From assembly GCA_963700285.1 (NCBI GenBank), contig CAVOXA010000007.1:1-64000 (forward strand): 64,000 nt of DNA, written 5' to 3'. The DNA comes from an uncultured Chloroflexia bacterium. Lineage in GTDB: Bacteria > Chloroflexota > Anaerolineae > JAAYZQ01. Both the position numbers and the translations under genes were made by a program. Of this stretch, positions 17,095 through 34,696 are shown in pieces (the stretch's first letter is position 1; every line of letters begins with the position of its first letter). The notes below the pieces were generated by a model that had not been told where the DNA came from, did not search any database, and saw only the letters and a program-made list of their open reading frames with translations.

Positions 17095-17318
17095 TCGAGA
17101 AGGAAATAGTCCCTGCGTCACCTGTCCGACCAGACGGGCGGGTTGGAAGTCAGCGCAGTATGCGTTGATCAGTTGCGGAAAACAAGGTTGCCACTGATTG
17201 TGGGGGGATGGCATAGACCATGGCCCCAAGGGTGCTTGCTGCTATCTCATCGAGACATCACTGTAGCCCACAGGTCTTTCTTAGGTCGCGAATAAGGCAA
17301 GTCAGGAGGAGGAATCAA

Positions 17319-20300
17319 ATGCAAACGGTGAATAGGACGCTCAAAAGGTACGCCCCACCGCGGAGCCTGTCCAGCTGGGTATTCAAGGCAGCCATGGCCC
17401 TGGTCCTGCTGCTTTCCCTGGTCCTGCTGCTGCCCGGGGTGGGCTACAGCGCCAACCCGGCGCCCAACCAGATCTACTATGTGCCCATGCGGGACAATGA
17501 TCTGCTGACGATGCTGGAGGATATCGACCAGCCGGCGGAGGACGGTGCCTGGCCTGATCCGGCAAGCCCGGTGCGGACCATTGCCTCCATCACCATCGGT
17601 TCCACGGGCACGCTGGTCTACTATGACCAGTGGGAGGACGGCTACGAGGCCAACGCCTCCATGGGCAATCCCACCAGCCTCTACAACAGCACCACCAACC
17701 CCGACGGTACCCAGATCTGGGGCGACGGCATCCTGTCCAACGGCTGTCCCCCGGCCATCGACAATGTGGCCAATCCCTGTGCTACTGCCGCCGATGACCA
17801 GTTCAATGCTGGGGACGTGATCACCCTCGACAACAAAGTACACATGCCCCTCACCGACGGCGCGACCCCCAATGGCCAGTACCTGGACCAATTCTCCACG
17901 AGCGCCTACAACAACAGCGACGGCTCCACATCGTGGACGACCAGCTGGGTGGAAAGCGGCGATACTGGCGGCGCGACCAGTGGCGACATCCAGGTCACCG
18001 GCGGCAAGCTGCGGTTTATGAACGCGGAGGGTGGGGATTACATCAGCCGCGTCGCGTCTGTTCCTGCTACCGCGGATAGGGCAATCCTTCATTTCACGAT
18101 AAATCCACTCTTCTCTTCGCAGAGCGACGTTATGGAAGTATGGGCCACCAGCGGCGCTGGATATACAAGGGTGAAAACCATCGATGCCGATAACCATCCC
18201 CTTGAGGAGCCCTACGCCGTCAACCTCACCGGCTTCAAGGGTACCTCTATGGGGATTAGGTTCCGGCAGGCCAGCAGCCTTGGTTCCAATCAGGGGTGGG
18301 AGATCGACGATGTGGAGATCACGTGGGGTGAGGCCCATACCCGAAGCGCGAGCCGAGTGTACTATGACGGCGGCGACAAGATCGGCGCTACCTTCCCGGT
18401 GGCTCTGACCCGCGTGGGCACTCCCCACGTGCCCGGCTCGGTGATGGCCGGCGCCACCGAGATGGAAGAGATCGACCTGTGGGGCACCTCCTTCGTGGCT
18501 CCGGTGGGCGAGGACACGCCCGACGCCAATACCAGCGCCTTCGAGTACGTGTACCTCTGGATCATGGCCAAGGAGGCCGGCACAACGGTCCAGATCGATA
18601 GCGATGCCAACGGCTCCGTCGACGATACCCAGACCTTGGCCGAGGGCGCTAACTACTACCGGCGCGGCATCCAGGAGGGGGCCACGGTTACGACCAACCA
18701 TCCGGTGCAGGTGCACCTCGTGGCCGCCGACCAGGGTGATACCTTTGAGCAGCGTTGGTACCACCTGGCGCCTCGTGACCAGTGGGACTCGAGCTATTAT
18801 GCCAGCGTGGGCACTGCTCCTGCGAGCTCTGGCTCGGGCTGTACTGAGGTTTGGGCCTACAACCCCAATGGCAGCCAGATCACGATCAGCGTCGACCGAC
18901 CAGGCGCTGCCACTACCACTTTCAACGTGGCCGCTAACGACGCCGATGAATGGCCAGGATCTGCGACCAACTTGGCTGGACGTGGTCTCCATCTATACAC
19001 TACCGGTGGTCAAGATTTCCTGCCCTTTCAGATCATCGACTGCACCAAGGACACGAGTGGTACCGAAGGGCGCCTCTTCGACTGGGGCTATCCCTTGATC
19101 CCGGCGGACCAGCTCACCTCTCAGTATCTGGTCGGCTGGGCGCCTGGCTGCACGGGTGACCCCATCTCGCCGGGGCTCTGCCAGGACCCTGACATCAACG
19201 GCGGCGCCGCCGCAAGCCGCAGCGTGATCTGGGTTACGCCCGTGCAGAACACGACGGTGTATGTCGCCTTTGACGGTGGCGACATCAACTGCCCTGGCGG
19301 TGCAGGTGCGGACTATTCCTTCAGCGCCACGGCGCTGACTTCCTACGGCCTCGTCGACGACCCGGGCGACGTCATCTCGGGCGAGGACGACTATGACATG
19401 ACCGGCGCCCGCATCGTCACCTGCAACGGCGTTGACCTGGCCGTGGCCTATGGCCAGGATCCGCCCCGCTCAGGCGGCAACGACGCTGAGGCCCTGGACC
19501 TGGGTACCGTTGTCCTACCCCTGGCGGGGGACATTACCCTCGAAAAGTCGGTGGACAAGACCCTGGTACCCCGGGGCGGCTCGGTCACCTATACCTACCT
19601 TGTGCGAAGCACCGGCCAGCCGCTGAGCGACGTCTCGGTGACCGACAACAAGTGCTCGCCGGCGGTGCCGACACTGAGCGGTGGCTATAACGTCGGCGAC
19701 ACGGCCAACCTCGGCTTCTTGGACCCCGGCGAGAGCTGGCAGTACACCTGCAGCACCAACATCTACCACCAGACCACCAACGTGGCCTTTGCCAGCGGCA
19801 CACCCGATGGCGGCACAACCTACATCGACAGCCCGCCTGACGAGGAGACGGTCAACGTTACCGACCCGGCCGCCATCGGCGACTATGTCTGGTTCGACGA
19901 GGATGGCGACGGCGACCAGGATGCTGGCGAGGCCGGCATTCCCAACGTCAAGGTGGAGCTGCTGGACAACCAGAACGCCGTAGTGGCCACAACCTGGACC
20001 GACGCCGACGGCGGCTACGTCTTTACCGGACTTGCGCCCGGAACCTATACCGTCCGCATCGACACGACCACGCTGCCCGATCCAGATGGCGCGGGTCCTG
20101 CTGGCCTGCACCCGACCTACGACGAGGATAGCGGAACGACCAACCCCGATCACCAGACCAGCGTGACCGTAGCCGCCGGCGACGAGCACATGACGGCCGA
20201 CTTTGGCTACAACTGGGCGACGCCTGGCGAGACCAACGACCCTGGGAATCAGAATGAACCCAAGGGCGCCATCGGCGACCGGGTCTGGATCGACGCCGAC

Positions 20301-22595
20301 GGCCAGGGCGACCAGGATCCGGGCGAGCCCGGACTGGGCGGCGTTGGCGTGGTGCTGAACTATGACTCGGACGGCGACGGCGTGATCGACAAGGTCTATG
20401 GTACCACGACCACGGATGACGCTGGCATGTATATCTTTGACGAACTGCCGCCAGGTATCTATACAGTCGTCATCGTCGGCGGCGCGACGCTGCCAAGCCC
20501 TGGCGATGCGGCGGTCACTTCCGGCCAGGCGCCATCCGGCTATGGCCAGACCGGCGACCCCGACGACACGGTCGACAACAAGACGACCGATCCGGTCGTA
20601 TTGGGGCCGGGTGATGTTTACCTCAATGCAGACTTTGGCTACCAGCCCTCGGGCAACAGCGGCACCATCGGCGACATCGTCTGGCTGGATGCCGATGCCG
20701 ACGGTGTTGGCCCCAATGGCAATGGTGCCAGCCCAGGGGACGACGATTCCGAGTATGGCATTCCCAATGTGACTGTGGCCCTCATCAAGGACTCCAACGG
20801 CAATGGTCAGTGGGATGCTGGTGAGCCGATTATCGCTACCGACGTCACCGACGAGAACGGCGCCTATTCCTTTACCGGCCTGCCCCTGGACGATGGAGAC
20901 GGCGATGCCGACTACCTGGTCTGGGTCAATGACACCGACAACGTACTTGGCGAGCAGGCCCCGACCTATGACAAAGACGGTACGTCACCGGCTGCCGGGC
21001 AGGAGACCGGGCTGGGGATCAGCGCCACGGCGCTGGCCGACAGCGCCGGAAACCGGCAGCGGTTGGACCAGGACTTTGGCTACGCCCCGCCCGGACACGA
21101 TACGGGCGAGGGTCTCATCGGCGACACGATATTCCTGGACCGGAACGGGGACAACACGCCCAATGCCGGCGAGGGATTGGAGGGTGTGCGGGTCTGGCTC
21201 TACGACTCGACCGGTACCACCCTCCTGCGCACGACTCATACCGACGAGAATGGCAACTACTACTTTGGCGACCTGGAGCCTTCGGGCACCTACCAGGTCT
21301 GGGTCGATACCACGACCCTGCCCAATGGCGGCGCCGGGCTGACCAACACCGTCGATCCCGATACGGCCAGTCCTGGCGATAGCAAATCGACGGTCAACCT
21401 GGGCGCTGATCCCGATGGTATCGACCTGGACCAGGACTTTGGCTACCGTGACACTAGCGACCCGAACACCATCGAGGGTACCCTATGGAATGATCGGGAT
21501 GCCGATGGCCTTCTGGAGGGCGCGGAACCGGGCCGCTTTGCCAACGTCAAGGTGGCGCTCTACGACAGCGGTGGTGACATCGTCGGCTACACCTACACCG
21601 ACAACAATGGCTTCTTCCAGTTCACGGGTCTCCCGGATGGCACCTACACCGTGGACGTGGTCGATGACGGCAACGTGCTGAACGGCTTCTGGCACTCGTT
21701 GGGCACGGCCAATACCGACAACAACAGCCAGGTGGATCCCTACACCACCAGTGTGGGGCCTGGCCAGAGGCTGGTCAACTGGGCCGACTTTGGCTACTAT
21801 GTGGACCCGGGCGCCCTGGGCAACTGGGTCTGGAATGACGTCAACGGCGATGGCATCCAGAATGACGGCGCAAAAGGCATCCCCAACGTCGAGGTCAAGC
21901 TGCAAATCACCTACCCCGGTGGCGCCACCGTCACTGTGACCACCAAAACCGATGCCAGCGGTTACTATAGCTTCCCCAACCTGCTGCTGGATGAGGACTA
22001 TAACGGCGACACCAGCACCGCCCCGGAGCCAAGCTACCAGATAAGTATCAACATTGCTCAGCCAGCTCTGGCGGCCTTCACCTTTCCATCCCCACTATCC
22101 CCACCAGCTTTAGGCAACCAGTTCAACGACTCGAACAACCCTGCTGGTACCAGCGCTCAGCCGACGCAAGGTATGACGGATGTATCCTCCGCAGCGGATG
22201 GTACTGCGCCCGCCTCCTACGACTATGGGTTTGGCGGCGCGCCAACGGGGGTCGAAGGCGTCATCGTCGGGACCTTTACGGCGGCGTGGGAAGGCGATGA
22301 GATCGTGGTCCGGTGGGCCACGGTCAGCGAACTGGATGTCAAGGGCTTTTACGTCTATCGCGCTACGTCTGAAGAGGGCACGCGGACCAAACTCAATGAC
22401 GACTTGGTGCCCAGCGCCATGCCGGGCAGCCCGACGGGTGCGGACTACAAGTATGACGACGAAACGGCGCAGCCTGGGGTCAAGTACTACTACTGGCTGG
22501 AGGGCATAGATCTGCGCGATGGGGCAACGCCCTACGGCCCGGCCGTGGTGGTGCCCTACCGTGGCTATCTGCCGCTGCTCTTCAAGAACCACTAG
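17319..22595 (+). CDS. Large secreted surface protein with DUF11-like and multiple SdrD-B-like repeats
   Basis: ATG 17319 after AGGAGGAGG; signal peptide; repeats IGD.VW.D.DGDG.QD.GE.G; LEKS..VTYTY module; C-terminal shared domain and YLPLLFKNH tail. Confidence 0.85.
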   Translation: MQTVNRTLKRYAPPRSLSSWVFKAAMALVLLLSLVLLLPGVGYSANPAPNQIYYVPMRDNDLLTMLEDIDQPAEDGAWPDPASPVRTIASITIGSTGTLVYYDQWEDGYEANASMGNPTSLYNSTTNPDGTQIWGDGILSNGCPPAIDNVANPCATAADDQFNAGDVITLDNKVHMPLTDGATPNGQYLDQFSTSAYNNSDGSTSWTTSWVESGDTGGATSGDIQVTGGKLRFMNAEGGDYISRVASVPATADRAILHFTINPLFSSQSDVMEVWATSGAGYTRVKTIDADNHPLEEPYAVNLTGFKGTSMGIRFRQASSLGSNQGWEIDDVEITWGEAHTRSASRVYYDGGDKIGATFPVALTRVGTPHVPGSVMAGATEMEEIDLWGTSFVAPVGEDTPDANTSAFEYVYLWIMAKEAGTTVQIDSDANGSVDDTQTLAEGANYYRRGIQEGATVTTNHPVQVHLVAADQGDTFEQRWYHLAPRDQWDSSYYASVGTAPASSGSGCTEVWAYNPNGSQITISVDRPGAATTTFNVAANDADEWPGSATNLAGRGLHLYTTGGQDFLPFQIIDCTKDTSGTEGRLFDWGYPLIPADQLTSQYLVGWAPGCTGDPISPGLCQDPDINGGAAASRSVIWVTPVQNTTVYVAFDGGDINCPGGAGADYSFSATALTSYGLVDDPGDVISGEDDYDMTGARIVTCNGVDLAVAYGQDPPRSGGNDAEALDLGTVVLPLAGDITLEKSVDKTLVPRGGSVTYTYLVRSTGQPLSDVSVTDNKCSPAVPTLSGGYNVGDTANLGFLDPGESWQYTCSTNIYHQTTNVAFASGTPDGGTTYIDSPPDEETVNVTDPAAIGDYVWFDEDGDGDQDAGEAGIPNVKVELLDNQNAVVATTWTDADGGYVFTGLAPGTYTVRIDTTTLPDPDGAGPAGLHPTYDEDSGTTNPDHQTSVTVAAGDEHMTADFGYNWATPGETNDPGNQNEPKGAIGDRVWIDADGQGDQDPGEPGLGGVGVVLNYDSDGDGVIDKVYGTTTTDDAGMYIFDELPPGIYTVVIVGGATLPSPGDAAVTSGQAPSGYGQTGDPDDTVDNKTTDPVVLGPGDVYLNADFGYQPSGNSGTIGDIVWLDADADGVGPNGNGASPGDDDSEYGIPNVTVALIKDSNGNGQWDAGEPIIATDVTDENGAYSFTGLPLDDGDGDADYLVWVNDTDNVLGEQAPTYDKDGTSPAAGQETGLGISATALADSAGNRQRLDQDFGYAPPGHDTGEGLIGDTIFLDRNGDNTPNAGEGLEGVRVWLYDSTGTTLLRTTHTDENGNYYFGDLEPSGTYQVWVDTTTLPNGGAGLTNTVDPDTASPGDSKSTVNLGADPDGIDLDQDFGYRDTSDPNTIEGTLWNDRDADGLLEGAEPGRFANVKVALYDSGGDIVGYTYTDNNGFFQFTGLPDGTYTVDVVDDGNVLNGFWHSLGTANTDNNSQVDPYTTSVGPGQRLVNWADFGYYVDPGALGNWVWNDVNGDGIQNDGAKGIPNVEVKLQITYPGGATVTVTTKTDASGYYSFPNLLLDEDYNGDTSTAPEPSYQISINIAQPALAAFTFPSPLSPPALGNQFNDSNNPAGTSAQPTQGMTDVSSAADGTAPASYDYGFGGAPTGVEGVIVGTFTAAWEGDEIVVRWATVSELDVKGFYVYRATSEEGTRTKLNDDLVPSAMPGSPTGADYKYDDETAQPGVKYYYWLEGIDLRDGATPYGPAVVVPYRGYLPLLFKNH

Positions 22596-22873
22596 CCTTA
22601 GCGGCCAGCGTGCGACCAAGACAGATGCCCACGCCGGAATGTTCTCCCGGCGTGGGCTTTCCCACGCAGCCCATATGGCCTGCAGGAGGCGTCCCAGGTC
22701 TAGGGCGCAGGGCTGATGATGTTCAGGCCCAATTTCCACCTCGGGGGGGATGGACAGGGCGCCAGCTCATGATACACTGGGCTGTGGGTGTCTATTTGTT
22801 TCTACCAAACCTGTCTCGTTCCTACCACCTTCTACCTCAACTTGTCAAGGAAATTGCACCTTGTTGGAGGAGT

Positions 22874-24106
22874 CTAGCGGCGTCGGAAACGCGCACCCAG
22901 TTCGGTGGTCAGTACGCGGAAGGGGTGCCAGAACCGCGCCAGCCGGACAGCGCCGGGGGCAGCCAGGGCATAGCGGTAGCTGAGCCACTCGTCGCCGGGC
23001 AGCAGGATAAAGCGCCCAAAGCGCAGCCATCCGGCCGGCCCGTCGATGAGCGCCAGATGGAGCTGGTAGGGACTGTCCGTACTGTTGGGCACGGGAGGGC
23101 GCGCATGGAACCGCGGACTTGGCCGTACTGTTGGGCGTCGCGGACGGGGCGCGCCCACTGGGGCGCTACCAGGCGGCGGACCCAGCGCCGGCGCAGGGCG
23201 CCAGGTTGTAGATCTGCCAACACCCGGTCGGGGATGGGCGTGCCCAGCAGTTCGCGGCTGAAGGACAGGCCGAAATAGACCGGGACGCGTACCTGGAAGG
23301 CCGAGGCCCTCTCCAGGAGTCGATCCCAGTTGAGGCCGGGATAGGCGGCGACGGTGCGGTCGATGTCGGTCAGGTTTAACAAATGGGCATAGCCATGGCC
23401 AAAGCCCCAGTGCAGGCAGAGGTGCAGCAGGCCGTCCTCGGGGCACAATTGCCAGGGTGGTCCCGGCCGTCGCTCAAGCGGAGCGGCAAGGCGGCCTGCC
23501 ACAGGGCCTCCATGTCGATGCGCGTGGCGTGGTGCAGCCACTTGTGGGTCGTCAGATGCCAGTGCAGGTCCAGCATCAGGTTGCCCACCGGCGAGGTCGC
23601 GGTGGAGGTTGATCTCGCCGCTGTAGCGCGCCTCGTAGGCAAAAGAGTGGCCGGGTGGTCCAGGCTGGGCCTGGTAGCCCAAGGGGCGCCAGGGCCTCGG
23701 GAACCTGTGGAACCTGGTCGCGGGGCACCAGGATGTCGAGATCGACCATGGGCCGGGGGGCGATGCCTTCATAGACTGTGCTGGCCAGGGCTGCGCCTTT
23801 GAGCGCCAGTGTGGGAATACCAGCCTCGGCCAGGCGGCCCAGGACGCGATCCAGCTCCTGGAACTGGAGGGTATTGAGCCTGGCGGCGCCATAGTAGGCC
23901 TGCCGGAGTTGCTCCTGGATCTCGGGTGGAGCGGCCAGGTTCTTCTGTTGGAGGGCGGCGTACAACTGGGGTGCGACGCCATCCCGTTGTGCCAGCTCGA
24001 CGATGCTGGTCCAGGATCCGGGTCCGGGTAGGGCAGGGGCCTCGGGCCGCTGGCCAGCGGCCAGCAGATGGCATAGGGAAGCCCAGGTGGTGCTTTGCTC
24101 AACCAT
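22874..24106 (-). pseudogene. Uncharacterised nucleotidyltransferase family protein (PF14907-like), about 4 frameshifts as given
   Basis: LALKGAALA..VY...PRPMVDLDILV, LDLHW and PEDGLLHLCLH motifs spread over three reading frames (shifts near 23685, 23585, 23460, 23090). Confidence 0.8.
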
Positions 24107-24153
24107 GGGGGGATTATAACCGGCTTGGACGAAAGGAGCAAGTCCAACCGCGT

Positions 24154-24251
24154 AGATCTGACAGGTTTGTCCTCCATGCGCAGGACTGGGAAGATCCACA
24201 GTCTGGCCCAGGACCCGTACCTGCTGGACACGAGGAAAACCTGTCAGGTCT
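24154..24251. repeat. REP/MITE-like element: 15-bp inverted arms around a 68-nt spacer
   Basis: AGATCTGACAGGTTT ... AAACCTGTCAGGTCT; nearly the same arms at 39052-39150. Confidence 0.75.
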
Positions 24252-24294
24252 GGATCCAAAAGGGATGGACTGGGGATGGTGGCCGTACTGCGAT

Positions 24295-24322
24295 TTGCGC
24301 AGATGTGGGTTTGTGGTATAAT
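24295..24322 (+). promoter_or_regulatory. Putative sigma70 promoter of the PqqD-rSAM operon
   Basis: TTGCGC-16 nt-TATAAT with extended -10 TG, 48 nt upstream of the PqqD ATG. Confidence 0.55.
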
Positions 24323-24370
24323 AACCAAGCGTGGGGGAGAACACATCCCACTATTGGAGTTCAATCGAGA

Positions 24371-24667
24371 ATGGTCGATTCTTTAGCAGTTCAACTCGAA
24401 AAAGACCCGTCGGTCGTCCACCGGGAGATAGCCGGTGAGTCGATCCTGGTCCCTATTCGCAGCCGGTCGGCCGACCTGGAGAGCATCTTTACCCTGAACG
24501 CATTGGGATCGCGTATCTGGGAGCTGATGGATGGCGACCGCTCGCTGGCCGAGATCAAGGAGCTACTGGCCGCAGAGTATGACGTGTCGCCGCAAGAGTT
24601 GGAATTGGACCTGCTCGAGTTCGTCGACCAACTGGTCGAGGCTGGCGTAGTCAGAGAGGTTGTCTAG
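24371..24667 (+). CDS. PqqD family protein (stand-alone RiPP recognition element)
   Basis: 98 aa from ATG 24371; REIAGESILVP..IFTLN..G..IWELMDG.RSL.EI...L..EYDV is a typical PqqD/RRE pattern. Confidence 0.88.
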   Translation: MVDSLAVQLEKDPSVVHREIAGESILVPIRSRSADLESIFTLNALGSRIWELMDGDRSLAEIKELLAAEYDVSPQELELDLLEFVDQLVEAGVVREVV

Positions 24668-25782
24668 GTGGACTGTCCGCACGTGCCTGATCTCCCGTTT
24701 GGCGAACTTGCCGGTAGGATCCGCAAGCAAGCCTACGAGAATAGGATCCCGCTCAGCGGCACGCTGGAGCTTACCTACCGCTGCAACAACAACTGTGTGC
24801 ACTGCTACTGCAACCTCCCGGCGGGCGACCGCAGCGCGAGGTCCAGGGAGCTGAGCGGCTCGCAGGTGAAGGCCATCCTGGACGAAATTTCCGAAGCCGG
24901 GTGCCTGTACCTGAGCATTACGGGCGGTGAGCCGCTCCTCCATCGCGACTTTGCAGAGATCTGGGTCCATGCCAAGGAAAAGGGTCTTCTTGTCTCTCTG
25001 ATGACCAATGGCACCGCGATCACGGAGGACGTGGCTGGCCTTCTGGCTGACTATTACCCGCTCGCCGTGGCCATAACGGTGTATGGCATAACGCGGGAGA
25101 CCTACGAACGCGTGAGCCGGGCGCCGGGTTCCTACGACAAGTGTATGGACGGCATCGACAGGCTCATGGCGCGGGGGATCAAGCCCAACTTGAGGACGAT
25201 TCCCATGGCCGCTAGCAGCGGCGACGTGGGGGGCGTGAGGGCCTTTGCCAAGGAGCGCGGGCTCAAGTTTCAGTTCGACCCACTGCTCACGCCGCGCAAG
25301 GACGGCGGAGCGTACGACTTTACGCAGAGGCTGTCGCCTCGAGAGATCGTCGAGCTCGACCTGCTGGATGAGGAGCGAGTCGAAAGTTTTCGAGATCTGG
25401 CGTATGACCGGCCTGCTGCGCCGGTCAATGGGGATCTGTTTCATTGTGGCGCGGGCGCCATCTCATTCAGTATCAACCCCTACGGGGAATTGGGCATGTG
25501 TCTCATGTCATCCCCTGCCTTCCCAGGATACGATCTGCTGTCGGGCTCGTTTGCGGAAGGTTGGTTCGATCATATCCCCGTCTGAGAGATCGAAAGATTA
25601 CTCGCAGCTTCGCGTGTGTGACCTGTGACAAGCGAGTCATCTGCGGCTGGTGTCCGGTGTGGTCGGATTTGGAGAACGGCAATCCGGAGAGCCCGGTAGA
25701 GTACCTGTGCCAGGTGGCGGACCACCGGGCGGTCGTTCTCGGCTTGGGCCAGCAGGGGCAGCATTCTGGCGAGCTGTCGTGA
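24668..25782 (+). CDS. Radical SAM/SPASM peptide maturase (one frameshift near 25580)
   Basis: ELTYRCNNNCVHC (CxxxCxxC), ITGGEP, CGAG..SINPYG...C; the SPASM end CVTC...ICGWCP...LC continues in another frame after a C4 run. Confidence 0.88.
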
Positions 25783-25808
25783 CCAAGTTCTGACATAGGA
25801 GGACATGT

Positions 25809-25970
25809 ATGGAGAAGGCCGAACGCAAAGCGTACGAGAAGCCAAGGATCGAACGTGTGGAGCTGAGGGTCGAAGAGGCCGTACTCGGTGTTTGCAAGAC
25901 CGCTACCGGGGGCGCCGCGAACCCTCCCGACTGCGTTATCGGAGTCTGCCTCGAAGAGATCGGTAGCTAG
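25809..25970 (+). CDS. Putative RiPP precursor peptide, 53 aa (not in ORF track)
   Basis: AGGAGG at 25797-25802, ATG 25809, TAG 25968-25970; MEKAERKAYEKPRIERVELRVEEAVLGVCKTATGGAANPPDCVIGVCLEEIGS; YxxP leader motif and a 3-Cys C-terminal region. Confidence 0.85.
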   Translation: MEKAERKAYEKPRIERVELRVEEAVLGVCKTATGGAANPPDCVIGVCLEEIGS

Positions 25971-25985
25971 TGCTGCCTGGTCGAA

Positions 25986-26871
25986 TTGGACAGCATTAGC
26001 GTCTTCTCGGTTGGCGGCTTTGCTTTTGCTCTGCAAGGGCAAGTTTCCGTCGAAATTCAGGATCTGTACCTGCCCTTCATGGAATCAGGTTTGGCACCTG
26101 ATGTTGCCGTCAGGTTGCGCCTCCGTGATGCGGTGGTTCGTGGTGCCCGTAGTGAGTTATCGCCTATCTTCGATACCGGGGATGCCTGGTCTCTACACCG
26201 TGAGGGCGATCACTACCTACTCAGTGTGCCATCGGCTGGCAACGGGAGGGCGACCTACTGCGAGGCTCTGATTTCTGATGATCTGAAAGATGTTGATCTA
26301 TATCTGGCGCGGGAGCTGCTGACCGGCAGCGTGGCCGGTCGTCCCGCCTTGCGCCTGGAAGTCCCTGATGTACCCGCTGGCCGAGTTGCTGCTCATCTGG
26401 ATCCTGGCGCGGCGGGATGGCATCCTGGCCCACGCGGCCGGCGTCGTCGATGGCGCGAAGGGCTATCTGTTCGTTGGGAACAGCGGCCACGGCAAGACGA
26501 CGATGGCCCGCCTGTGGGCCGAGGGTGCAACGATTCTCAACGACGATCGCATTGTCGTCAGGCCTCGCGACGGGCGCTTCTGGATGTATGGCACTCCCTG
26601 GCACGGCGACTACCAGCGGGTATCACCCGGCGCATTCCCCATCAGCAAGGTCTTTTTCCTCTCCCAATCGACCTCCAACCAGGCCCAGCCCAGATCCACC
26701 TCGGAAGCGGCCACACTGCTCCTGACGCGCTCCTTTCTTCCGCTCTGGGATCGGACGGCCATGGCCAGCCTCCTGTCCTCCTGCGCTGAGATTGCCTCGG
26801 CGGTGCCCTGCTACGACCTGGGTTTCCTGCCCGAACCCGGCATTGTCGACTATGTGAGGGGCCTGGCCTAG
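25986..26871 (+). CDS. HPr-kinase-related P-loop protein (ScmC-like), one frameshift near 26360
   Basis: HAAGV....G.LF.GNSGHGKTT (Walker A), LNDDR and YGTPWHG motifs in 26368-26871; the N-terminal half is in the frame of 25986. Confidence 0.75.
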
Positions 26872-26884
26872 TGTTCAGAGTCCG

Positions 26885-27376
26885 ATGATACACTGTTCCG
26901 CACAGGACCTGGCGCAGCTTGGCGACCTGGTCCTGAAGCAGGGCGCCGAGTTGCGGTTCCGCGCCGCAGGCACGAGCATGCAACCCGTGATCCAGGATGG
27001 CCAAACCATCAGGGTCGCGCCCGCGCCGGCGGGCGGAACCCGGTTGGGCGACATCCTCTTTTACCGCAGTGGCGCGGACCGGGCCGTGGTCCATCGTTTG
27101 CTCAAGCGCGTCCAGACGGCGGGAGGGGTGCTGTTGTTGACCAAGGGCGATGCCTGCGCCAGCGCCGATCCGTTGGTGCCGCCGGAGCGGGTGTTGGGCC
27201 GGGTTGTCGCTATCGAGGCCATGGATGGGCGGCTGCTTCGATTGGATCGGGGGCTGAACCTCTTGCGGGCCAGGCTTTACGCCTGGCTGTGGCTGGCCTC
27301 CCCCTATCTGCGCCGGGCGCTGGGCAAACGGCCCACCTTTGGCGCTCTTTTGCGCCAACTGCTGCTGCCCAGGTAA
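26885..27376 (+). CDS. S24/S26 family serine peptidase
   Basis: GTSMQP (catalytic Ser), VVHRL, TKGD and VLGRV motifs. Confidence 0.85.
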   Translation: MIHCSAQDLAQLGDLVLKQGAELRFRAAGTSMQPVIQDGQTIRVAPAPAGGTRLGDILFYRSGADRAVVHRLLKRVQTAGGVLLLTKGDACASADPLVPPERVLGRVVAIEAMDGRLLRLDRGLNLLRARLYAWLWLASPYLRRALGKRPTFGALLRQLLLPR

Positions 27377-27390
27377 TCGCGACGCTGCGG

Positions 27391-27419
27391 GCGAGGCTCG
27401 GAAGCCTCGCTCTTTTGTT
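27391..27419 (+). terminator. Rho-independent terminator closing the RiPP-like operon
   Basis: GCGAGGCT-CGGA-AGCCTCGC followed by TCTTTTGTT. Confidence 0.7.
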
Positions 27420-27499
27420 GCGGATTCCGCAGGCTGCTCGCGCCAGGTCACAGTGGGGCGTACCTAGCCGCAGAGCAGATGGGCCGAAACAGGCTCGAG

Positions 27500-28092
27500 A
27501 CTGTGCGAAAGCGCTTGTGCTGGGCCCGATCCCCGCACTTCGGGGACACAGTCCAGCCCAAGCGCGCAGATTGGCGGACTGTGGTCCGCCTAGAGCAAGT
27601 GAGTGAGTTTTCGCACAGTCTGGCTTGTGCTGGACCCGATCCTCGCACTTTGGGGACACAGTCCAGCCCAAGCGCGCACGGATCGGCGGACTGTGGTCCG
27701 CCTAGAGCTAGTGAGTGAGTTTTCGCACAGTCTGGCTTGTGCTGGACCCGATCCCCGCACTTCGGGGACACAGTCCAGCCCAAGCGCGCACGGATCGGCG
27801 GACTGTGGTCCGCCTAGAGCTAGTGAGTGAGTTTTCGCACAGTCTGGCTTGTGCTGGACCCGATCCCCGCACTTCGGGGACACAGTCCAGCCCAAGCGCG
27901 CACGGATCGGCGGACTGTGGTCCGCCTAGAGCTAGTGAGTGAGTTTTCGCACAGTCTGGCTTGTGCTGGACCCGATCCCCGCACTTCGGGGACACAGTCC
28001 AGCCCAAGCGCGCACGGATCGGCGGACAGTGGTCCGCCTAGAGCTAGTGAGTGAGTTTTCGCACAGTCTGGCTTGTGCTGGACTGTGGTCCA
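27500..28092. repeat. Tandem array of about 5 copies of a 112-bp palindrome-rich unit
   Basis: GTGAGTTTTCGCACAGTCTGG recurs at 27603, 27715, 27827, 27939 and 28051; each unit has CCCCG/CGGGG, GCTGGAC/GTCCAGC and GGCGGAC/GTCCGCC stems. Confidence 0.92.
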
Positions 28093-28158
28093 CGCAGAGC
28101 AGATGCTGATCCTTGTTGCAGGACATTCTGTTGGAAAGAGGTAGGTAGACCATTGGGT

Positions 28159-31100
28159 ATGGCACTCAAGATCCGTTGGCTTGGTAGAGTCTTCTTTGTG
28201 TTGGTAGCTGTTGCGATGATCTGGCCCGCGTCGCCGGGCCATGCTGTTGCTTCTGAGAGAGCAATTGTAGACAATGCGGTCAGGCTGCTGTCCGCGACGG
28301 AGGTTGGAGCCACGTTCGAGGTCAGGGTACCCCGAGACCGGCTGCAGGTTGAGGCCGTATCGTCAGGTGGCCAGGAGATGTCCAAGGTGTCGATCCCTGG
28401 CTGGAGCACGACCGGGCGGGCTGGAGCGCCTGCTCTGCCCATGGTGGTGGCCACGCTGGGCGTACCGCACGGCGCTGAGGTTACGCTGAGCGTTGGCCCG
28501 GGCGCGCCCGCCTTGTTGGCCCTGCCCGCTCCCGTGGCGGCGGTGCCGGCGCTCAGTCCTGAGTGGAGTGAACCTGCGCCTGGGGTCCTGTCTCAAGGGC
28601 TGCCAACACTTGGGTTCGAAAACCAGCCCGATCCCGAGATATATGGTTCGGACCAGGCTTATCCCGGTCCCCTGGCCGCGATCGTGAGCGACCGCACAGT
28701 GAATGGCCAGCGCGTGATTGGCGTAGCGGCTTATCCGGTCCAGTACCAGCCAGACTCGGTGTTGCTCGTGGTTTATGAGGATCTGGAGATCCAGATCGCC
28801 TTCGAGGGCGGGACTGGCGGAGACGCAGAGGGATTTGCTGCCCAGCCAGGGTCCGCGGACGATGCGGGCCGCCTGGGGCGTGGAGTGTTGAACGAACTGG
28901 CAGCGGAGGCCTGGGTCCAGGGGACCGCAGCGCCCGCCGGGACGCTTGCCGCCCCATGGCTGCCGCCTGACCCGGGCTACCGGGTGTCGGTCGAGCATGC
29001 CGGCATCTACAAGCTGACCTATGGCGACCTGTCCGGTGCCGGCGTACTCGACACCAACCCCGATCCGCGGACCTTCCGGCTCTACAACAAGGGCCAGGAG
29101 GTAGCCATCCATGTGGAAGGTGAAGGCGACGGGCAGTTTGGCGTGGACGACTATGTGCTTTTTTATGGGGAAGCTGCTGACTCGAAATATACGCCCTACA
29201 ACGTCTACTGGCTGACCTATGCGCCAACCGTGGCCGGTGACGAGCGGCGGATGCCGGACCGCGATGGAACGCCGGATCCCGCTGGAGGAACCTCGCCTGT
29301 TGGCCACAATGATGTCCTTCACCGCGAAGAGAACCACTACTATGTCACCATTCTGGATGGCGACCAGGACCTGGAACGCTTTGTGTGGAGCTATGTCTAT
29401 GCACCCTCCATACCCCAATGGTCGCACTCCTTTTCGCTGGCCGGTCCCGCGACCGGGACGGCCATGCTCACGGTGGCTATGTTTGGTGGGAATATCCGTG
29501 ACAGTTATGCCGACCCGCATCACACCGTCGTGACCCTGAACGGGGTTGAACTCGAGAACGTGGTGTGGGATGGGATCGAGTGGTACGTGATGAGCGAGCC
29601 GCTTGATCAATCTATCCTGAAAACCAGCCCGGAGGTCAATACTCTCGTGGTCTCCAGTCCCAATGACCAGGGCGAAAGCTATGATCTGGTCTACATCGAC
29701 TGGGCGACGCTCGAGTTTGTGAACAGCTTTACCGCGGTGGACGATCAGCTTCGTTTCCACTATGACACCCCGGGCATTTGGACCTATGCCATCGAAGGTT
29801 TCACGACGGACGATGCGATTGTTTTTGACATAACGGATCCAAGTTCGGTGGCGCGCATTACGGGTGGTGGCCAGATCGCCGCCAATCCGGCCGCATATTC
29901 CTTCGTCGACGAGGTGGCGGCGGGCGCGGCGACCGACTATATCGTTCTGACGCCGGCCGCCTTCAGGTCGCCGGCGGGTATCGAGCTGGATACACCGTCT
30001 GACTTGGGCGCGGTGACGGGTGCGGACTGGGTCGTCGTGACGCACTCGCTATTTTCGGGGGCGGCGGCCCGGCTGACAGCCCACCGGGCAGCCCAGGGTT
30101 TGGTGGCTTTCCAGGTGGACGTCCAGGACGTCTACGATCAGTTTGGTTACGGCATAGAGGGCGCCTACCCCATCCACGATTTTCTGGAATACACCTTTTA
30201 CAACTGGCAGCCGAGGCCAGTCTACGTGGTCCTCTTTGGCGATGGATCGGCCGATCCCAAGGACCATGAGAAGCGCGGTAGCGTCAGCTTCATCCCGCCC
30301 TACCTCGCGCCGGTGGATCCCTGGATCGTGGAGACGGCGGCCGACAACCGTTACGTGGCCTTTACAGATACGGGAACCTACCCGCTCCCGGACATGATGC
30401 TGGGGCGCCTGGCGGTGGACACGGAGCACCAGGCCAACGTCGTCGTGAACAAGATCATCGACTATGAGCTGGCGCCAGAACCTGGGGACTGGAAAGAGAG
30501 CGTGCTCTTTGTTGCAGACAACGACGATCCGGGGATCGCGTTCACAGATTACTCGGACGACATTATCAACTGCTGCCTTCCGGCCTCCTACCAGTACGAG
30601 AGGGTCTACTACCTGGATACGCACCCGACTTCAGGTGGAGCCAAGGCGGACATCCTAGCCAACATCACCAGCGGACAGTTCATCGTCAATTATGTCGGCC
30701 ATTCCTCGGTGACGACCTGGGCTGGCGAGTCGCTTTTCGGCGTCGGAGACCTCGGGTCCCTGGGCAACGGGGGAAAACTGCCCGTCATGCTGCCCATGAC
30801 CTGCTATGACGGGTACTACCACGGCCTGTATTCGTCCTCCCTGGCAGAGTCCATCGTCCGTATCGAGGGAAAAGGCGCCGTGGCAAGCTGGTCGGGAACA
30901 GGCCTGGGCGTGGCGCAGGGACACGACGAGCTGAACCGGGGCTTTTTTGACGCGCTGTTCAAAGACGGCAAGCGCACCATCGGCGAGGCAACGATGGCGG
31001 GCCTACAGCGGCTGGCGGACGGCGGCACCCACCTGGACCTCCTGGATACCTACCTCCTGTTTGGGGACCCAGCGCTCCAGCTCACGCAGGCGCCCACCTC

Positions 31101-31431
31101 GGTGGAACTGGCCTCTTTTGAGGCGATCGCGAAGGGGGGCCAAGCGGTGATGCTGCGCTGGCGGACGGCCAGCGAAGCTGGCGTACTGGGCTTCGATCTG
31201 TTCCGGCAGGACGCGCGGGGTACCGTCCAGCTTAATGATGGCCTCATTCCCAGCAGGGCGCCTGGCACGGCGATGGGAGCAGCCTATGAATGGCTGGATG
31301 GCCCCCTGCCCGCTGGTGAGCATCTGTACTGGCTGGAGATCATCGATCAGACCGGAGGCCGGACGCGGCATGGGCCGGCTGAGGCAGTTTTGGCTGAGTA
31401 TCGCCTCCTTCTGCCTTTCGTGAGTCGATAG
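28159..31431 (+). CDS. Secreted C25 (gingipain/PorU-like) cysteine peptidase 1
   Basis: Likely ATG 28159 plus signal peptide; propeptide-like N-terminus; DVQDVYDQFG, MLGRL, NYVGH (His), MTC (Cys), YLLFGDP; C-terminal shared domain and LLLPFVSR tail. Confidence 0.88.
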   Translation: MALKIRWLGRVFFVLVAVAMIWPASPGHAVASERAIVDNAVRLLSATEVGATFEVRVPRDRLQVEAVSSGGQEMSKVSIPGWSTTGRAGAPALPMVVATLGVPHGAEVTLSVGPGAPALLALPAPVAAVPALSPEWSEPAPGVLSQGLPTLGFENQPDPEIYGSDQAYPGPLAAIVSDRTVNGQRVIGVAAYPVQYQPDSVLLVVYEDLEIQIAFEGGTGGDAEGFAAQPGSADDAGRLGRGVLNELAAEAWVQGTAAPAGTLAAPWLPPDPGYRVSVEHAGIYKLTYGDLSGAGVLDTNPDPRTFRLYNKGQEVAIHVEGEGDGQFGVDDYVLFYGEAADSKYTPYNVYWLTYAPTVAGDERRMPDRDGTPDPAGGTSPVGHNDVLHREENHYYVTILDGDQDLERFVWSYVYAPSIPQWSHSFSLAGPATGTAMLTVAMFGGNIRDSYADPHHTVVTLNGVELENVVWDGIEWYVMSEPLDQSILKTSPEVNTLVVSSPNDQGESYDLVYIDWATLEFVNSFTAVDDQLRFHYDTPGIWTYAIEGFTTDDAIVFDITDPSSVARITGGGQIAANPAAYSFVDEVAAGAATDYIVLTPAAFRSPAGIELDTPSDLGAVTGADWVVVTHSLFSGAAARLTAHRAAQGLVAFQVDVQDVYDQFGYGIEGAYPIHDFLEYTFYNWQPRPVYVVLFGDGSADPKDHEKRGSVSFIPPYLAPVDPWIVETAADNRYVAFTDTGTYPLPDMMLGRLAVDTEHQANVVVNKIIDYELAPEPGDWKESVLFVADNDDPGIAFTDYSDDIINCCLPASYQYERVYYLDTHPTSGGAKADILANITSGQFIVNYVGHSSVTTWAGESLFGVGDLGSLGNGGKLPVMLPMTCYDGYYHGLYSSSLAESIVRIEGKGAVASWSGTGLGVAQGHDELNRGFFDALFKDGKRTIGEATMAGLQRLADGGTHLDLLDTYLLFGDPALQLTQAPTSVELASFEAIAKGGQAVMLRWRTASEAGVLGFDLFRQDARGTVQLNDGLIPSRAPGTAMGAAYEWLDGPLPAGEHLYWLEIIDQTGGRTRHGPAEAVLAEYRLLLPFVSR

Positions 31432-31529
31432 GAGCTCGCAGTAGGTTGCTGTTCGGCCGTACTTGCCAGGCGCTGCGGATGATGTGCAGGTCAAGGTGTG
31501 TTCAAGACATCAGGAGATAGGGGGTAGCT

Positions 31530-34484
31530 ATGGAAAAGCGTGGAAGGTTCAGAATGGCGGGCTGGTGCCTGATCATCGTCCTGATCGTGGTGTCCCTCCC
31601 TTCAGCGGCGGGGGCGGGCAGCTTGGCCCAGCCGGGCCGGGCAGGCGCCGTCGATCTGCTTTCTTCCAGTGAGTCTGGGCTGAGTTGGTTGCTGCAGGTT
31701 CCCACGGATCGCCTGGCAGTGGAGCCGGTCGCCGTGGATGGGGAGACGTTCGCGGCCATCTCGCTGGCAGGCTGGGGCGCGACCCAGCAGGCCGGAGCGC
31801 CGGAGCTGCCGAGGCTGGTGACGGCCATCGGCGCGCCGCCCGGTGCGGAGGTGCGCGTCCAAGCCTTACCAGGCGCGGCAACTTCAAGGACGCTGCCTGG
31901 CCGGGTGCTGCCCGTGCCCACGCTGGAAGCGCGCTGGGACGGCGAGGCACTGGTCGCAGGAAGCCCGTTCCTCCCCTCACTGAAGAGCGAGCGGGTGGCC
32001 GATCCGGCGGTCTATGGGGCTGGCGGATCCTACCCCGGAACCCTGGCCGAGGTGGTGAGCGACGGCTGGGTGCGCGGACAACGGGTCGTTGGCATCGCGC
32101 TCTATCCGGTTCAGTACGAGCCTGCCACGGGTGGGCTGACGGTCTATGAGAACCTGGAGGTGCAGGTGCGCTTCGAGGGGGCTGCTGCGGCAGGACGCCC
32201 CGGCGGGGCCCAGGGCCCCGCGCACGAGGCGCTGTTCGAGAGCGAGTTGCTGAACTATGAGGCAGCGCGGAACTGGGCCAGCGCCACAGAGGCGGCGGGT
32301 CCCGAAGCCGTGCCCTGGATGCCGCCGGACCCAGGCTTCCGGGTGTACGTGGAAGAAGAAGGGATTTACAGGCTGTCCTATGGCGAGCTGCAGGCGGCCG
32401 GTGTGCTGGCCGGCAACCCCGATCCGGGGACATTCCGCATGTACAACATGGGCCAGGAGGTGGCCATCCACGTCGAGCTGGGCGGTGACGGGAACTTTGG
32501 CGCGGGGGACTATATACTCTTTTACGGGCAAGCTATCGCGTCCAAGTACAGCCGCTACAACGTGTACTGGCTGACCCACGGTCAGGGTACAACCAAGCCG
32601 ATGGGCAGCCGCGATGGGTCGCCATCGGGAGGGACGGCGCCCGCGACTTTTGATGACCTGCTCCATCTGGAGCAAAACCAGTACTATGTCACGAGTCTGG
32701 TGGGTGATGAAAACCTGGAACGGTTCGTGTGGGACTATTTGTATCCGCCGGAGCGGAACAGTTGGGCGACCAGCCTTTCGCTGACGGCCCCGGCCCATGG
32801 GTCAGAGAAGGCAACGCTCAAGATCCTGGTTCATGGCGGCGATCTGCCGGACAACGCCTCCGATCCTCACCGCGTGCAGGTCTATCTCAACGGTGGTGAG
32901 GTGAAGGACGAATCGTGGAACGGCATCGGCCAGCACGAGATCATCATTGGCAATCTGAGCCAGACCCTGCTCAACGCGGGCAGCAACAACGTGGAGCTAC
33001 GAGCTCCCAGGGCCGAGGACCTGGTGTACGTGGACTGGCTGGACCTAGCCTTTGCCAACACTTTTGTGGCTGGTGCCGACTCGCTGGCCTTCAACCAGGC
33101 CAATCCTGGCAAGTGGCAGTTCGGCATCGACGCCTTTAGCCAGTCCGGCGTGGCGGTCTTTGACGTAACCGACCCGGCCTCGGTGGCACGCATCCTTAAC
33201 GGCAGCGTGACTCCCTCGGGCCCGAGTTTCTCCCTTGCCTTCACGGATCAGATCGCCGCTCCCACCCGCTATCTGGCTCTGGCCAGCACCGCGTTCCTGC
33301 CGGCGGCCAAGATCGAGCGCGACACAGCCTCCAATCTGCAGTCGGCAGCCAATGGCGCGGACTATGTCCTGGTAACGCACCGGGATTTCGCCGCCGCGGT
33401 GGCGCCTCTGGCGGCCTACCGGGCCGGGCAGGGGCTGCGGGTCGTGCAGGTGGATGTGCAGGACGCCTACGACGAGTTCGGCTATGGCCTGCCTAGCGCG
33501 CAGGCCCTGCGCGCGTTCCTGACCTATGCCTACGACAGATGGGTCGATCCTGCCCCCGAGTACGTGCTGCTGGTGGGCGACGGGCATTACGATCCAAAGG
33601 ACTATGGGGGCCATGGGCTGGCGAGCTATATCCCGCCCTACCTGGCGCCTGTGGATCCCTATATCAACGAGACGGCGGCGGACAACCGCTATGTGTCCTT
33701 CACCGCCGGGGACGAAATCCCGGATATGATGCTGGGTCGGATGGCGGTGAATTCGGCCGCGGAGGCCACCGTCGTCGTTAACAAGACCCTGGACTATGAG
33801 AAGGCGCCCGCGCCCGGAAGCTGGAACAACCGCGTGCTCTTTGTGGCTGACGATCCTGAGGCGGGCGCCAACTACCCCAAGATGTCGGACGATCTGATCG
33901 CTTGCTGCCTGCCGGGCAGTTATGGGTCGCCGAAAGTCTACTATACGGTGACCCATCCCACACCCGCTGGGGCCAGGGCCGCCATCCTTTCGGCCATCAG
34001 CGCCGGACAGTTGATCGTACACTATAACGGCCACGCGCTGACGTTCCGGTGGGCGGACGAGTCGCTGTTCAGGTCGAGTGACATCCCGTCCCTGGCCAAC
34101 GGAAACCGCCTGCCCATCATGCTGCCGATGACGCGCTACGATGGCTACTTCCACCAGCCGGTCCCCTCCTCCCAGGGCTCCATGGGCGAAGGCATCGTTC
34201 GCGCTGACGGGAAGGGGGCCGTGGCCAGTTGGTCGCCGGCGGGCGTCAACCTGTCGACAGGGCAGGCGGAGCTCGACAGCGGCTTCTTTGATACGGTCTT
34301 CAAGGCCGGCAGTAGAGTCGCAGGTCAGGCCGCTACGGCCGGCAAGGTGCGTCTGTGGGCGACCGGCAAGAACCAGGACCTGGTGGACACCTTCATATTC
34401 TTGGGCGATCCAGCGCTGGCGATCCATCCGCTCTGGGATGGGGCGTCTATCTTTCTTCCGGTGATCCAGAGGACTGCTCACTAG
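31530..34484 (+). CDS. Secreted C25 peptidase homologue 2 (catalytic Cys replaced by Arg)
   Basis: Signal peptide; HYNGH retained but MTRYDG where the paralogues have MTCY(D/E)G; FLGDP; IFLPVIQR tail. Confidence 0.86.
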   Translation: MEKRGRFRMAGWCLIIVLIVVSLPSAAGAGSLAQPGRAGAVDLLSSSESGLSWLLQVPTDRLAVEPVAVDGETFAAISLAGWGATQQAGAPELPRLVTAIGAPPGAEVRVQALPGAATSRTLPGRVLPVPTLEARWDGEALVAGSPFLPSLKSERVADPAVYGAGGSYPGTLAEVVSDGWVRGQRVVGIALYPVQYEPATGGLTVYENLEVQVRFEGAAAAGRPGGAQGPAHEALFESELLNYEAARNWASATEAAGPEAVPWMPPDPGFRVYVEEEGIYRLSYGELQAAGVLAGNPDPGTFRMYNMGQEVAIHVELGGDGNFGAGDYILFYGQAIASKYSRYNVYWLTHGQGTTKPMGSRDGSPSGGTAPATFDDLLHLEQNQYYVTSLVGDENLERFVWDYLYPPERNSWATSLSLTAPAHGSEKATLKILVHGGDLPDNASDPHRVQVYLNGGEVKDESWNGIGQHEIIIGNLSQTLLNAGSNNVELRAPRAEDLVYVDWLDLAFANTFVAGADSLAFNQANPGKWQFGIDAFSQSGVAVFDVTDPASVARILNGSVTPSGPSFSLAFTDQIAAPTRYLALASTAFLPAAKIERDTASNLQSAANGADYVLVTHRDFAAAVAPLAAYRAGQGLRVVQVDVQDAYDEFGYGLPSAQALRAFLTYAYDRWVDPAPEYVLLVGDGHYDPKDYGGHGLASYIPPYLAPVDPYINETAADNRYVSFTAGDEIPDMMLGRMAVNSAAEATVVVNKTLDYEKAPAPGSWNNRVLFVADDPEAGANYPKMSDDLIACCLPGSYGSPKVYYTVTHPTPAGARAAILSAISAGQLIVHYNGHALTFRWADESLFRSSDIPSLANGNRLPIMLPMTRYDGYFHQPVPSSQGSMGEGIVRADGKGAVASWSPAGVNLSTGQAELDSGFFDTVFKAGSRVAGQAATAGKVRLWATGKNQDLVDTFIFLGDPALAIHPLWDGASIFLPVIQRTAH

Positions 34485-34696
34485 ATCTGCCAGTGCCATG
34501 TCGCGGCTGTGCTGAGACCAGTCCCCCAGTTCGCAATGGGTGGGCTGGTCTCTGTTCATCGGTCGCAAGATCCCGAGGTTGCCGTTCCAGGCACATCAAG
34601 CACGCCCTGCCGGTCCGCTACGGCGACGTGCCTCCGGATCATCTGCTGTAATGCAGCTAACGGAGAAAAACCGAAATTCAGGTTGTAATGGGATGG

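Follow-up and report, generated by a model that had tools for sequence, protein, structure and literature searches.

A radical SAM-bearing RiPP-type cassette in an uncultured Chloroflexia bacterium, a candidate relative of the linear polyphosphorylated peptide pathway

Gene content and conservation of the cassette

We analysed a 64,000-nucleotide (nt) stretch of DNA from an uncultured Chloroflexia bacterium (hereafter the window; NCBI GenBank assembly GCA_963700285.1, contig CAVOXA010000007.1, positions 1 to 64,000 of the forward strand) for a six-part gene cassette that a first-pass annotation had read as a maturation system for a peptide synthesized by ribosomes and modified after translation (RiPP). 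Open reading frame (ORF) listing, three-frame translation, Pfam and NCBIfam located all six parts in the window, with the six genes where they had been claimed to lie, and the assignment to a RiPP-type cassette is supported. The cassette and the hairpin that follows it are as follows (aa, amino acids):

22874 to 24106, minus strand: nucleotidyltransferase-like gene of PF14907 (NTP_transf_5), divergent from the operon, with four indels in the window
24371 to 24667, plus strand: discrete PqqD-family RiPP recognition element (RRE), PF05402, 98 aa, intact
24668 to 25782, plus strand: radical S-adenosylmethionine (SAM)/SPASM maturase; the first frame, 24668-25585, carries CX3CX2C and the SPASM end lies in another frame
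25809 to 25970, plus strand: precursor peptide, 53 aa, with AGGAGG 8 nt upstream
25986 to 26871, plus strand: HprK/PEPCK-fold P-loop protein, predicted peptide kinase, split by an extra T at 26362
26885 to 27376, plus strand: SipW/Sec11-type (archaeal-type) signal-peptidase-I-like S26 protein, 163 aa, intact, predicted leader peptidase
27389 to 27412, plus strand: terminator-like hairpin followed by TTTTGTTG, directly 3' of the last gene; a consensus match only

The plus-strand genes from PqqD to S26 are packed end to end. They had been described earlier as a promoter-to-terminator operon, but a sigma-70-like promoter was not found upstream of PqqD; the sole match between 22500 and 28300 is at 22751-22778 (0.9 expected by chance), and this kind of scan says little for the host phylum. 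Terminator-like consensus matches numbered 4 in the region against 3.2 expected by chance. No Rfam match was found in 22400-28400 at E <= 0.1. A Pfam scan of 22 large window ORFs returned none of the lasso cyclase, B2 protease and ABC exporter that had been called absent, and this sets the range over which that claim holds. A search of the source genome for a second cassette returned none and only a single HprK-like match.

The gene set recurs widely. Relatives of the radical SAM gene were found in 18 of 41 related genomes, the source genome (G000) included. PqqD, radical SAM and kinase genes stand in the same order in all nine of the relatives' loci fetched and in most of 78 further loci, which came from a scan with the kinase of a same-genus relative (G001) restricted to one genome per species. 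Because the same order recurs in this way, the clustering of the cassette genes is beyond chance. About a dozen phylum-level labels are represented, so that we observe the set directly as conserved across phyla: Desulfobacterota, Acidobacteriota, Nitrospirota, Nitrospinota (Nitrospinae), Chloroflexota, Verrucomicrobiota, KSB1, WOR-3, Omnitrophota, Aerophobetes, Eremiobacterota (Eremiobacteraceae) and one Methanosarcina. Profiles built from our own alignments and run over all ORFs of 85 loci, many of them cut by contig ends, gave these counts:

HprK-like kinase (the query): 84 of 85 loci
Radical SAM: 82 of 85 loci
PqqD: 72 of 85 loci
S26-like domain: 72 of 85 loci
PF14907: 31 of 85 loci
PqqD, radical SAM, kinase, S26 and precursor together: 54 of 85 loci
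All six parts: 19 of 85 loci

The gene-neighbourhood check proposed with the first-pass annotation thus finds the genes together in other genomes, the 19 six-part loci being among the 54. At E <= 1e-30 the kinase profile matched 2,839 of 1.84 billion cluster representatives; relaxing the threshold to E <= 1e-10 gave 13,069, the weaker of which will include other HprK-like families.

Frame breaks of the window copy

The earlier gene reading was right that the parts are present but overlooked that frameshifts interrupt three of the six genes in the window: the nucleotidyltransferase gene at four places, the radical SAM and kinase genes at one each. DNA alignment with the G001 locus places the nucleotidyltransferase indels at ~23687 (+1), ~23599 (+1), ~23453-23470 (+5) and ~23063-23110 (+44), and Pfam matches PF14907 in two frames (100.5 bits over profile positions 4-117 and 43.8 bits over 174-249). 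The radical SAM gene lacks one base at ~25577 within a run of C, which leaves its SPASM end out of frame with the N-terminal 305 codons. An additional T at 26362 divides the kinase gene into 25986-26360 (the N-terminal 125 codons) and 26368-26871 (the P-loop half). The breaks are local, since long ORFs in the rest of the window stay open over 38,964 bases.

We checked the breaks by aligning Logan contigs of eight public runs to the stretch. Seven of these runs are RNA libraries, whose contigs cover parts of both strands' genes and are not counted as expression, because transcription is not visible from Logan contigs and such libraries may contain DNA. Bridging contigs came from seven runs and seven studies and were 95-100% identical to the window. 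At five of the seven places (23453, 23459, 23599, 23687 and 26362) the extra base was absent from every bridging contig. The kinase T is missing from contigs of runs X1, X4 and X6 (at a position given as 26359 in one run). At one of the five covered places, a 151-nt bridging contig equals the window apart from the single missing base, with no other letter changed. The remaining two places, ~25577 and the 44-nt insert, fall outside the contig cover, and the comparison says nothing on them.

These results bear directly on whether the window cassette is a decaying, non-functional remnant in which the frameshifts are real strain mutations and no product is made, whatever the family does elsewhere. 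This is a doubtful reading that nevertheless carries real weight: seven frame-breaking indels are crowded into ~4.5 kb while the long ORFs elsewhere are open, the 44-nt insert (flanked by a repeated 13-14-mer) and the 5-nt insert are atypical of single-base consensus errors, no contig bridges two of the places, and the G001 copy is itself broken in the nucleotidyltransferase N-terminus and in an out-of-frame radical SAM CX3CX2C stretch. It is opposed by the agreement of all bridging contigs at all five covered places, by near-identical DNA in which indels outnumber substitutions, a pattern that points to consensus error, and by the intact state of the PqqD, precursor and S26 genes, with PqqD 97% identical to its G001 orthologue. 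The covered frame breaks are probably assembly consensus errors or, less likely, very recent strain-specific lesions. The window copy is a typical member of the family with frame breaks, which are themselves directly observed.

The G001 locus (L010, G001:C14:2000-15000) has an out-of-frame stretch at 6124-6330, where the radical SAM CX3CX2C motif is expected, three 1-nt differences in the nucleotidyltransferase N-terminus at 5223-5560, and a C25 gene split into four ORFs at 9079-12291. It is no clean reference because of these frame breaks of its own.

DNA identity between G000 and G001 is uneven along the cassette. It is mostly 85-95% in the nucleotidyltransferase and PqqD genes (76% in two 150-nt windows spanning the 44-nt insert), 58-79% in the radical SAM gene, the precursor and the kinase N-terminal domain, and 75-84% in the kinase P-loop half and S26; contigs of three runs diverge from the window exactly at 26295. 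We infer that the radical SAM enzyme, the core peptide and the N-terminal domain of the kinase form a module that varies as a whole. Such variation would fit enzymes required to recognise the core and, if the population is mixed, may also account for a poor consensus.

Predicted roles of the precursor and enzymes

A peptide with the precursor motif lies between the radical SAM and kinase genes in 70 of 87 loci (motif search). An alignment of 41 precursors (A4) has the consensus KKxYxKPxxxxVxLxxEEAVLxxCK...C....C....GS, in which P12 and L26 are invariant and conservation is at least 90% at Y9, V17, L19, C29, C42 and C47. The window precursor fits this pattern fully, with Y9-x-x-P12 in the leader, EEAVL-x-x-C29-K, Cys42 and Cys47 in the core, and a C-terminal Gly-Ser. 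The C-terminal Ser, singled out earlier as a feature of the precursor, is conserved: in a set of 72 peptides that includes one antisense chance match and one truncated peptide, 63 have Ser as their last residue, and in 58 it is preceded by Gly.

The assignment of the kinase is structural. An AlphaFold model of the G001 orthologue (pLDDT 93.4) gave Foldseek matches to PEPCK (6asn, 1.4e-7) and HprK/P (1knx, 3.9e-5; 1kkl, 6.8e-5), whereas by sequence the kinase profile gave weak, P-loop-centred matches only in the PDB (HprK/P 1ko7, E 0.0016). [quoted passage not shown] The cassette family keeps these residues, with H149 in 49 of 49 sequences and the P-loop K170, D/E186 and D/E187 in 48 of 49 each, which backs the proposal that the HprK-like kinase acts on the terminal Ser. 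Nucleotidylation of that Ser, suggested alongside it, is less likely than glycosylation of the phosphoserine, given what the same text reports for the homologous PsmN.

Because the cores hold Cys together with several Ser/Thr, the kinase could instead be imagined to activate Ser/Thr for elimination in the style of class III/IV lanthipeptides, with Cys adding to the dehydro-residues to form lanthionines and the radical SAM enzyme doing something else. Phosphorylation followed by elimination is an established route to lanthionines. A lyase or cyclase domain was not found in the cassette with Pfam or NCBIfam, and the HprK-like RiPP kinases characterised so far, as far as the available text covers them, leave (poly)phosphate on Ser; we regard lanthionine formation as extremely improbable.

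The radical SAM protein matches PF04055 (83.8 bits), with the motif CNNNCVHC in frame in the window and the SPASM end in the shifted frame. In 34 intact relatives, C39, C43 and C46 of CX3CX2C and seven C-terminal Cys are invariant, which makes a full SPASM domain. The cassette therefore has the features of sacti- or ranthi-type maturation, namely CX3CX2C with a SPASM domain of seven Cys, an RRE and a core that carries Cys. A core that varies except at three near-invariant Cys usually marks a thioether RiPP. NCBIfam gives no closer placement, since no cut-off was reached by the window protein or by the 34 relatives; the best match of the window piece is the mycofactocin maturase MftC (107.6 bits, cut-off 265), and those of the relatives are AhbD, NirJ2 and MftC at ~87-99 bits against cut-offs of 265-500. 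Only the conserved Cys speak for thioethers, because the sactipeptide and ranthipeptide models score no better.

These scores can also be taken to mean that the enzyme makes no Cys thioethers. It would then act on the C-terminal Gly-Ser, as MftC acts on the C-terminal Val-Tyr of MftA, or make a C-C or C-O link, with the Cys serving as disulfides or metal ligands and the kinase acting on another hydroxyl. The window piece does match MftC best, all 34 relatives match MftC, AhbD and NirJ2 more strongly than the sactipeptide and ranthipeptide maturases, and the C-terminus is the most conserved feature of the core. However, the scores lie far below the cut-offs and show a shared SPASM scaffold only, the three near-invariant Cys argue for thioethers, and a conserved C-terminal Ser next to an HprK-like kinase has a direct precedent in lasso tailoring (PMC9266682). 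We consider a maturase without thioether chemistry unlikely and prefer thioether cross-linking of the core.

The PqqD protein is clearly assigned (PF05402, 64.3 bits, cut-off 23.4). Its best solved relative is the lasso RRE TbiB1 (5v1u, E 5.5e-6), and 9x8z_B, a 'PqqD family protein', also matches (E 0.003).

The S26 protein scores 44.6 bits against TIGR02228, just below the cut-off of 51.85, and matches SEC11A (7p2p, E 0.019). Its predicted catalytic residues are S31, H70 and D89 (and D95); G29, S31, M32, P34, G55, H70, R71, D89 and G105 are invariant in 23 S26 sequences. The spacing of S31 and H70 is 39 residues, as between S29 and H68 of the leader peptidase LppS. By its sequence the protein has no N-terminal membrane anchor. 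Folding S26, PqqD and the precursor of the window together gave a score of 0.77, whereas the best of 3 controls reached 0.33; runs agreed in at least 77% of contacts and partner pLDDT was at least 83. Of 157 solved complexes used in calibration 116 reached this mark, as did 2 of 215 mismatched pairs. In the model, precursor residues 17-30 contact S26 at S31, 66-70 and 95, among other residues, and PqqD residues 16-41 lie against the first 29 residues of S26, which supports binding among the three. The S26 protein had been proposed as a leader protease, and that role now has this model and an experimental precedent: the SipW-like peptidase LppS (S29, H68, D93) of the linear polyphosphorylated peptide (LPP) pathway removes the leader only when the RRE LppB is present, according to the main text of Popov et al. 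(Nat Commun 2026, PMC13381572).

Clustering of all locus ORFs, with Pfam run on examples, showed that the S26-like domain comes in four forms. In 24 loci it is a protein of its own (155-194 aa). It is followed by GNAT in L025:6764-7795 and L050:6816-7706, which were scanned out of ten ORFs of 296-350 aa, is fused to PF14907 in L043:5167-6846 (minus strand) and L047:5177-6874, and opens a giant ORF of at least 1272 aa in another 24 loci, mostly of Acidobacteriota, where the ORFs run past the end of the locus. L060:6866-12862 shows an S24-like domain with ten DUF11 repeats behind it. Fusion to GNAT and to PF14907 would fit a tailoring-pathway protease whose cut exposes a new N-terminus, and GNAT as a partner suggests that this N-terminus of the core is then N-acetylated.

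The cassette lies among genes for giant surface proteins. In order, it is preceded by genes for a histidine kinase and a response regulator, for three giant M28-cadherin proteins and for a 1791-aa SdrD-repeat protein, and followed by those for three giant Peptidase_C25 proteins spanning 28051-38771, the first of which is:

28051 to 31431, plus strand: giant Peptidase_C25 (gingipain/PorU-type) protein, PF01364, 249.1 bits, which may be an accessory of the cassette

A C25 relative was found in the flanks of 28 of 86 loci, including the eight Chloroflexota-type loci that carry one (L011-L016, L018, L094); C25 adjoins the cassette in these eight and in L053, L055, L090 and L091. The link between C25 and the cassette is an association.

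This arrangement invites the reading that the giant secreted proteins next door have in S26 a signal peptidase of their own, as TasA has in SipW, and that S26 is not a leader peptidase for a small peptide. S26 is encoded directly upstream of the three C25 proteins, C25 is associated with the cassette in the loci just counted, and the S26-like domain forms the N-terminus of giant DUF11-repeat ORFs in 24 loci. Yet S26 is present in 72 of 85 loci against 28 of 86 for C25 and is kept in many loci that have no giant protein, the membrane anchor is absent, the model sets precursor residues on the catalytic residues, and the GNAT and PF14907 fusions point to peptide tailoring; LppS, moreover, is a proven leader peptidase in the text cited above. 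We hold a signal peptidase role to be very unlikely and retain leader removal as the role of S26.

A more far-reaching idea is that the product is no free antibiotic but a thioether-cross-linked peptide with a (poly)phosphorylated or glycosylated C-terminal Ser that works with the neighbouring C25 surface proteases, either as a dedicated regulator or as a substrate or anchor in sortase-like transpeptidation. It draws on the fact that C25 adjoins the cassette in both Chloroflexota and Acidobacteriota and that an S26 domain is fused to a giant DUF11 protein with C25-like sequence. We consider this improbable.

Several features of the surroundings were observed in passing. A C-terminal domain of ~119 aa ending in a short hydrophobic tail occurs both in the SdrD-repeat protein (17220-22595) and in the first C25 protein (40% identity, E 4e-20), and may be a common sorting or anchoring signal. 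A single C-terminal sorting domain common to all seven giant proteins is ruled out, as only these two share the ~119-aa domain; M28a and M28c share a different one. The three M28 proteins are tandem paralogues (4804-16940) with PKD, Peptidase_M28 and many Big_9/cadherin-like repeats. Between S26 and the first C25 gene lies a tandem array (27513-28083) of 5.1 copies of a 112-nt unit with 97% matches. The G001 locus lacks it, Rfam gave no match to it, and two further runs have contigs that part from the window at 27447, just ahead of the array. Farther off, an MttB-family methyltransferase adjoins a B12-binding protein (39427-41644), and 52001-54000 has a G+C of 0.546 against ~0.63 elsewhere, with no long high-GC3 ORF found there.

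Proposed pathway and comparison with known systems

We think it fairly probable that the cassette is a ribosomal-peptide maturation pathway and a radical SAM-extended relative of the LPP pathway. LPP clusters (lppA-K-B-S-D-N, mostly of Bacillota) combine the RRE LppB, the HprK-like kinase LppK, the SipW-like peptidase LppS, the NTP-transferase LppN and the exporter LppD; in the main text the final product is described as still not known, and its authors state that SpI-like (signal-peptidase-I-like) peptidases were previously undescribed in RiPP pathways (PMC13381572). In our proposal of five steps, PqqD would first bind the 53-aa precursor, likely through its Y-x-x-P-x-I leader, as its homology to lasso and LPP RREs suggests. 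The radical SAM/SPASM enzyme would then modify the core, most probably by thioether cross-links at C29, C42 and C47, although the chemistry is not assignable from the sequence. Third, the HprK-like protein would (poly)phosphorylate a Ser, most probably the C-terminal Ser53, in the manner of the paeninodin-type kinases. As a speculative fourth step the PF14907 protein might decorate the phosphate, for example with a hexose as PsmN does. Finally, once docked on PqqD and its bound leader, the SipW-like S26 protein would remove the leader by a cut within residues 22-30, as LppS and the complex model suggest, and possibly after Ala24, if the register of the LPP leader, which is cut twelve residues past the Pro, carries over.

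A number of points weigh against this proposal. The chemistry is predicted from genes and models alone. Three genes are frame-broken in the window, two of the breaks (~25577 and the 44-nt insert) have no contig cover, and the copy may be partly dead. For the radical SAM protein, StsB (72.8 bits) and AlbA (59.8 bits) score no better than AhbD, NirJ2, MftC and PqqE (98.8 to 80.4 bits). The Gly-Ser end is missing from the precursors of the Chloroflexota relatives L011-L015 and L094. The comparison of S26 with LppS is one of published residue numbers. The fold of the complex departed from the calibration in having three chains and alignments of our own. With regard to LPP itself, the 22 large ORFs scanned in the 64-kb window yielded no counterpart of its MsbA-like exporter, the Ser on which LppK places up to four phosphates is residue 3 of the core whereas the conserved Ser of the cassette is C-terminal, and deletion of lppN changed nothing in the LPP study (main text, PMC13381572).

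If the proposal is true, the product would carry both radical cross-links and a phosphorylated C-terminus, two chemistries that no single ribosomal peptide is yet known to combine. Clues to the role of such peptides in soil and sediment bacteria may come from the S26-type leader peptidase, from its fusion to GNAT, PF14907 and giant surface proteins, and from the association with C25. In a literature search we found no published pathway with both an HprK-like kinase and a radical SAM enzyme; LPP, published in 2026, is the closest system characterised and the only such relative.

The first-pass annotation had likened the cassette to the SynChlorMet and HprK-related cassettes, which do hold the same kinds of parts (HprK-like, PqqD-like and radical SAM/SPASM proteins) and supply the best or near-best NCBIfam matches for the kinase. 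When the models were scored, every cut-off was missed: ScmC (TIGR04249) reached 38.0 of 125 bits, ScmD (TIGR04248) 26.5 of 100, ScmE (TIGR04250) 55.2 of 400, ScmF (TIGR04251) 73.8 of 400, and the HprK-related kinases A (TIGR04352) and B (TIGR04355) 19.1 and 37.7 of 200. Among the 49 kinase relatives the best ScmC match has an E of 3.8e-11 and 46 match HprK_rel_B weakly (best E 9.6e-12); the best ScmE match of the 34 radical SAM relatives has an E of 2.3e-28. SynChlorMet cassettes differ in having two radical SAM/SPASM genes where ours has one. In the literature searched, the term SynChlorMet was not found and ScmC occurred only in unrelated uses.

The sactipeptide and ranthipeptide pathways (AlbA, StsB, PapB) and MftC resemble the cassette in their RRE-dependent radical SAM/SPASM enzyme, two auxiliary-cluster Cys motifs and short Cys-bearing core. 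They have no kinase, no SipW-like leader peptidase is recorded with them, and the window radical SAM protein has no equivalog-level match to them. Paeninodin- and pseudomycoidin-type lasso tailoring shares the HprK-like kinase with its His-Lys-Asp-Asp motif, a precursor with a conserved C-terminal Ser and the nucleotidyltransferase homologue. It differs in its lasso cyclase (C) and B2 cysteine protease, which are found neither in the cassette itself nor among the 22 large ORFs; the cassette, for its part, adds a radical SAM enzyme, and its leader is predicted to be removed by an S26-type serine peptidase.

LPP is the system that makes the earlier statement that no characterised pathway has this combination of parts outdated for four of the six. 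These four have a characterised counterpart because LPP joins an RRE, an HprK-like kinase, a SipW-like peptidase and an NTP-transferase (main text, PMC13381572). [quoted passage not shown] The dependence of the peptidase on the RRE is proven for LPP and modelled for the cassette. For the NTP-transferase, the cassette has its PF14907 gene, broken by four indels in the window, and the main LPP text never names 'PF14907'.

The differences lie in the core and in the enzyme that would act on it. LPP has no radical SAM protein, and 'radical', 'SPASM' and 'thioether' occur 0 times in its main text, although the supplementary sequence similarity network clusters could include such loci. Its leader, YxxPxVLxHQxIxFETxxS, shares only Y-x-x-P-x-[IV] with YxKPxxxxVxLxxEEAVLxxCK of the cassette. 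LPP cores are long and variable, those of the cassette short with three Cys, and the cassette has no conserved Ser three residues past the predicted cut. LPP is mostly found in Bacillota, whereas the cassette family carries the dozen or so other phylum labels listed above. The cassette is thus set apart from LPP by its radical SAM enzyme, its Cys-rich precursor ending in Gly-Ser, its missing exporter and its different leader. It is a real and widespread system whose radical SAM-bearing form is uncharacterised, and a variant of the tailoring logic of the LPP and paeninodin-type pathways.

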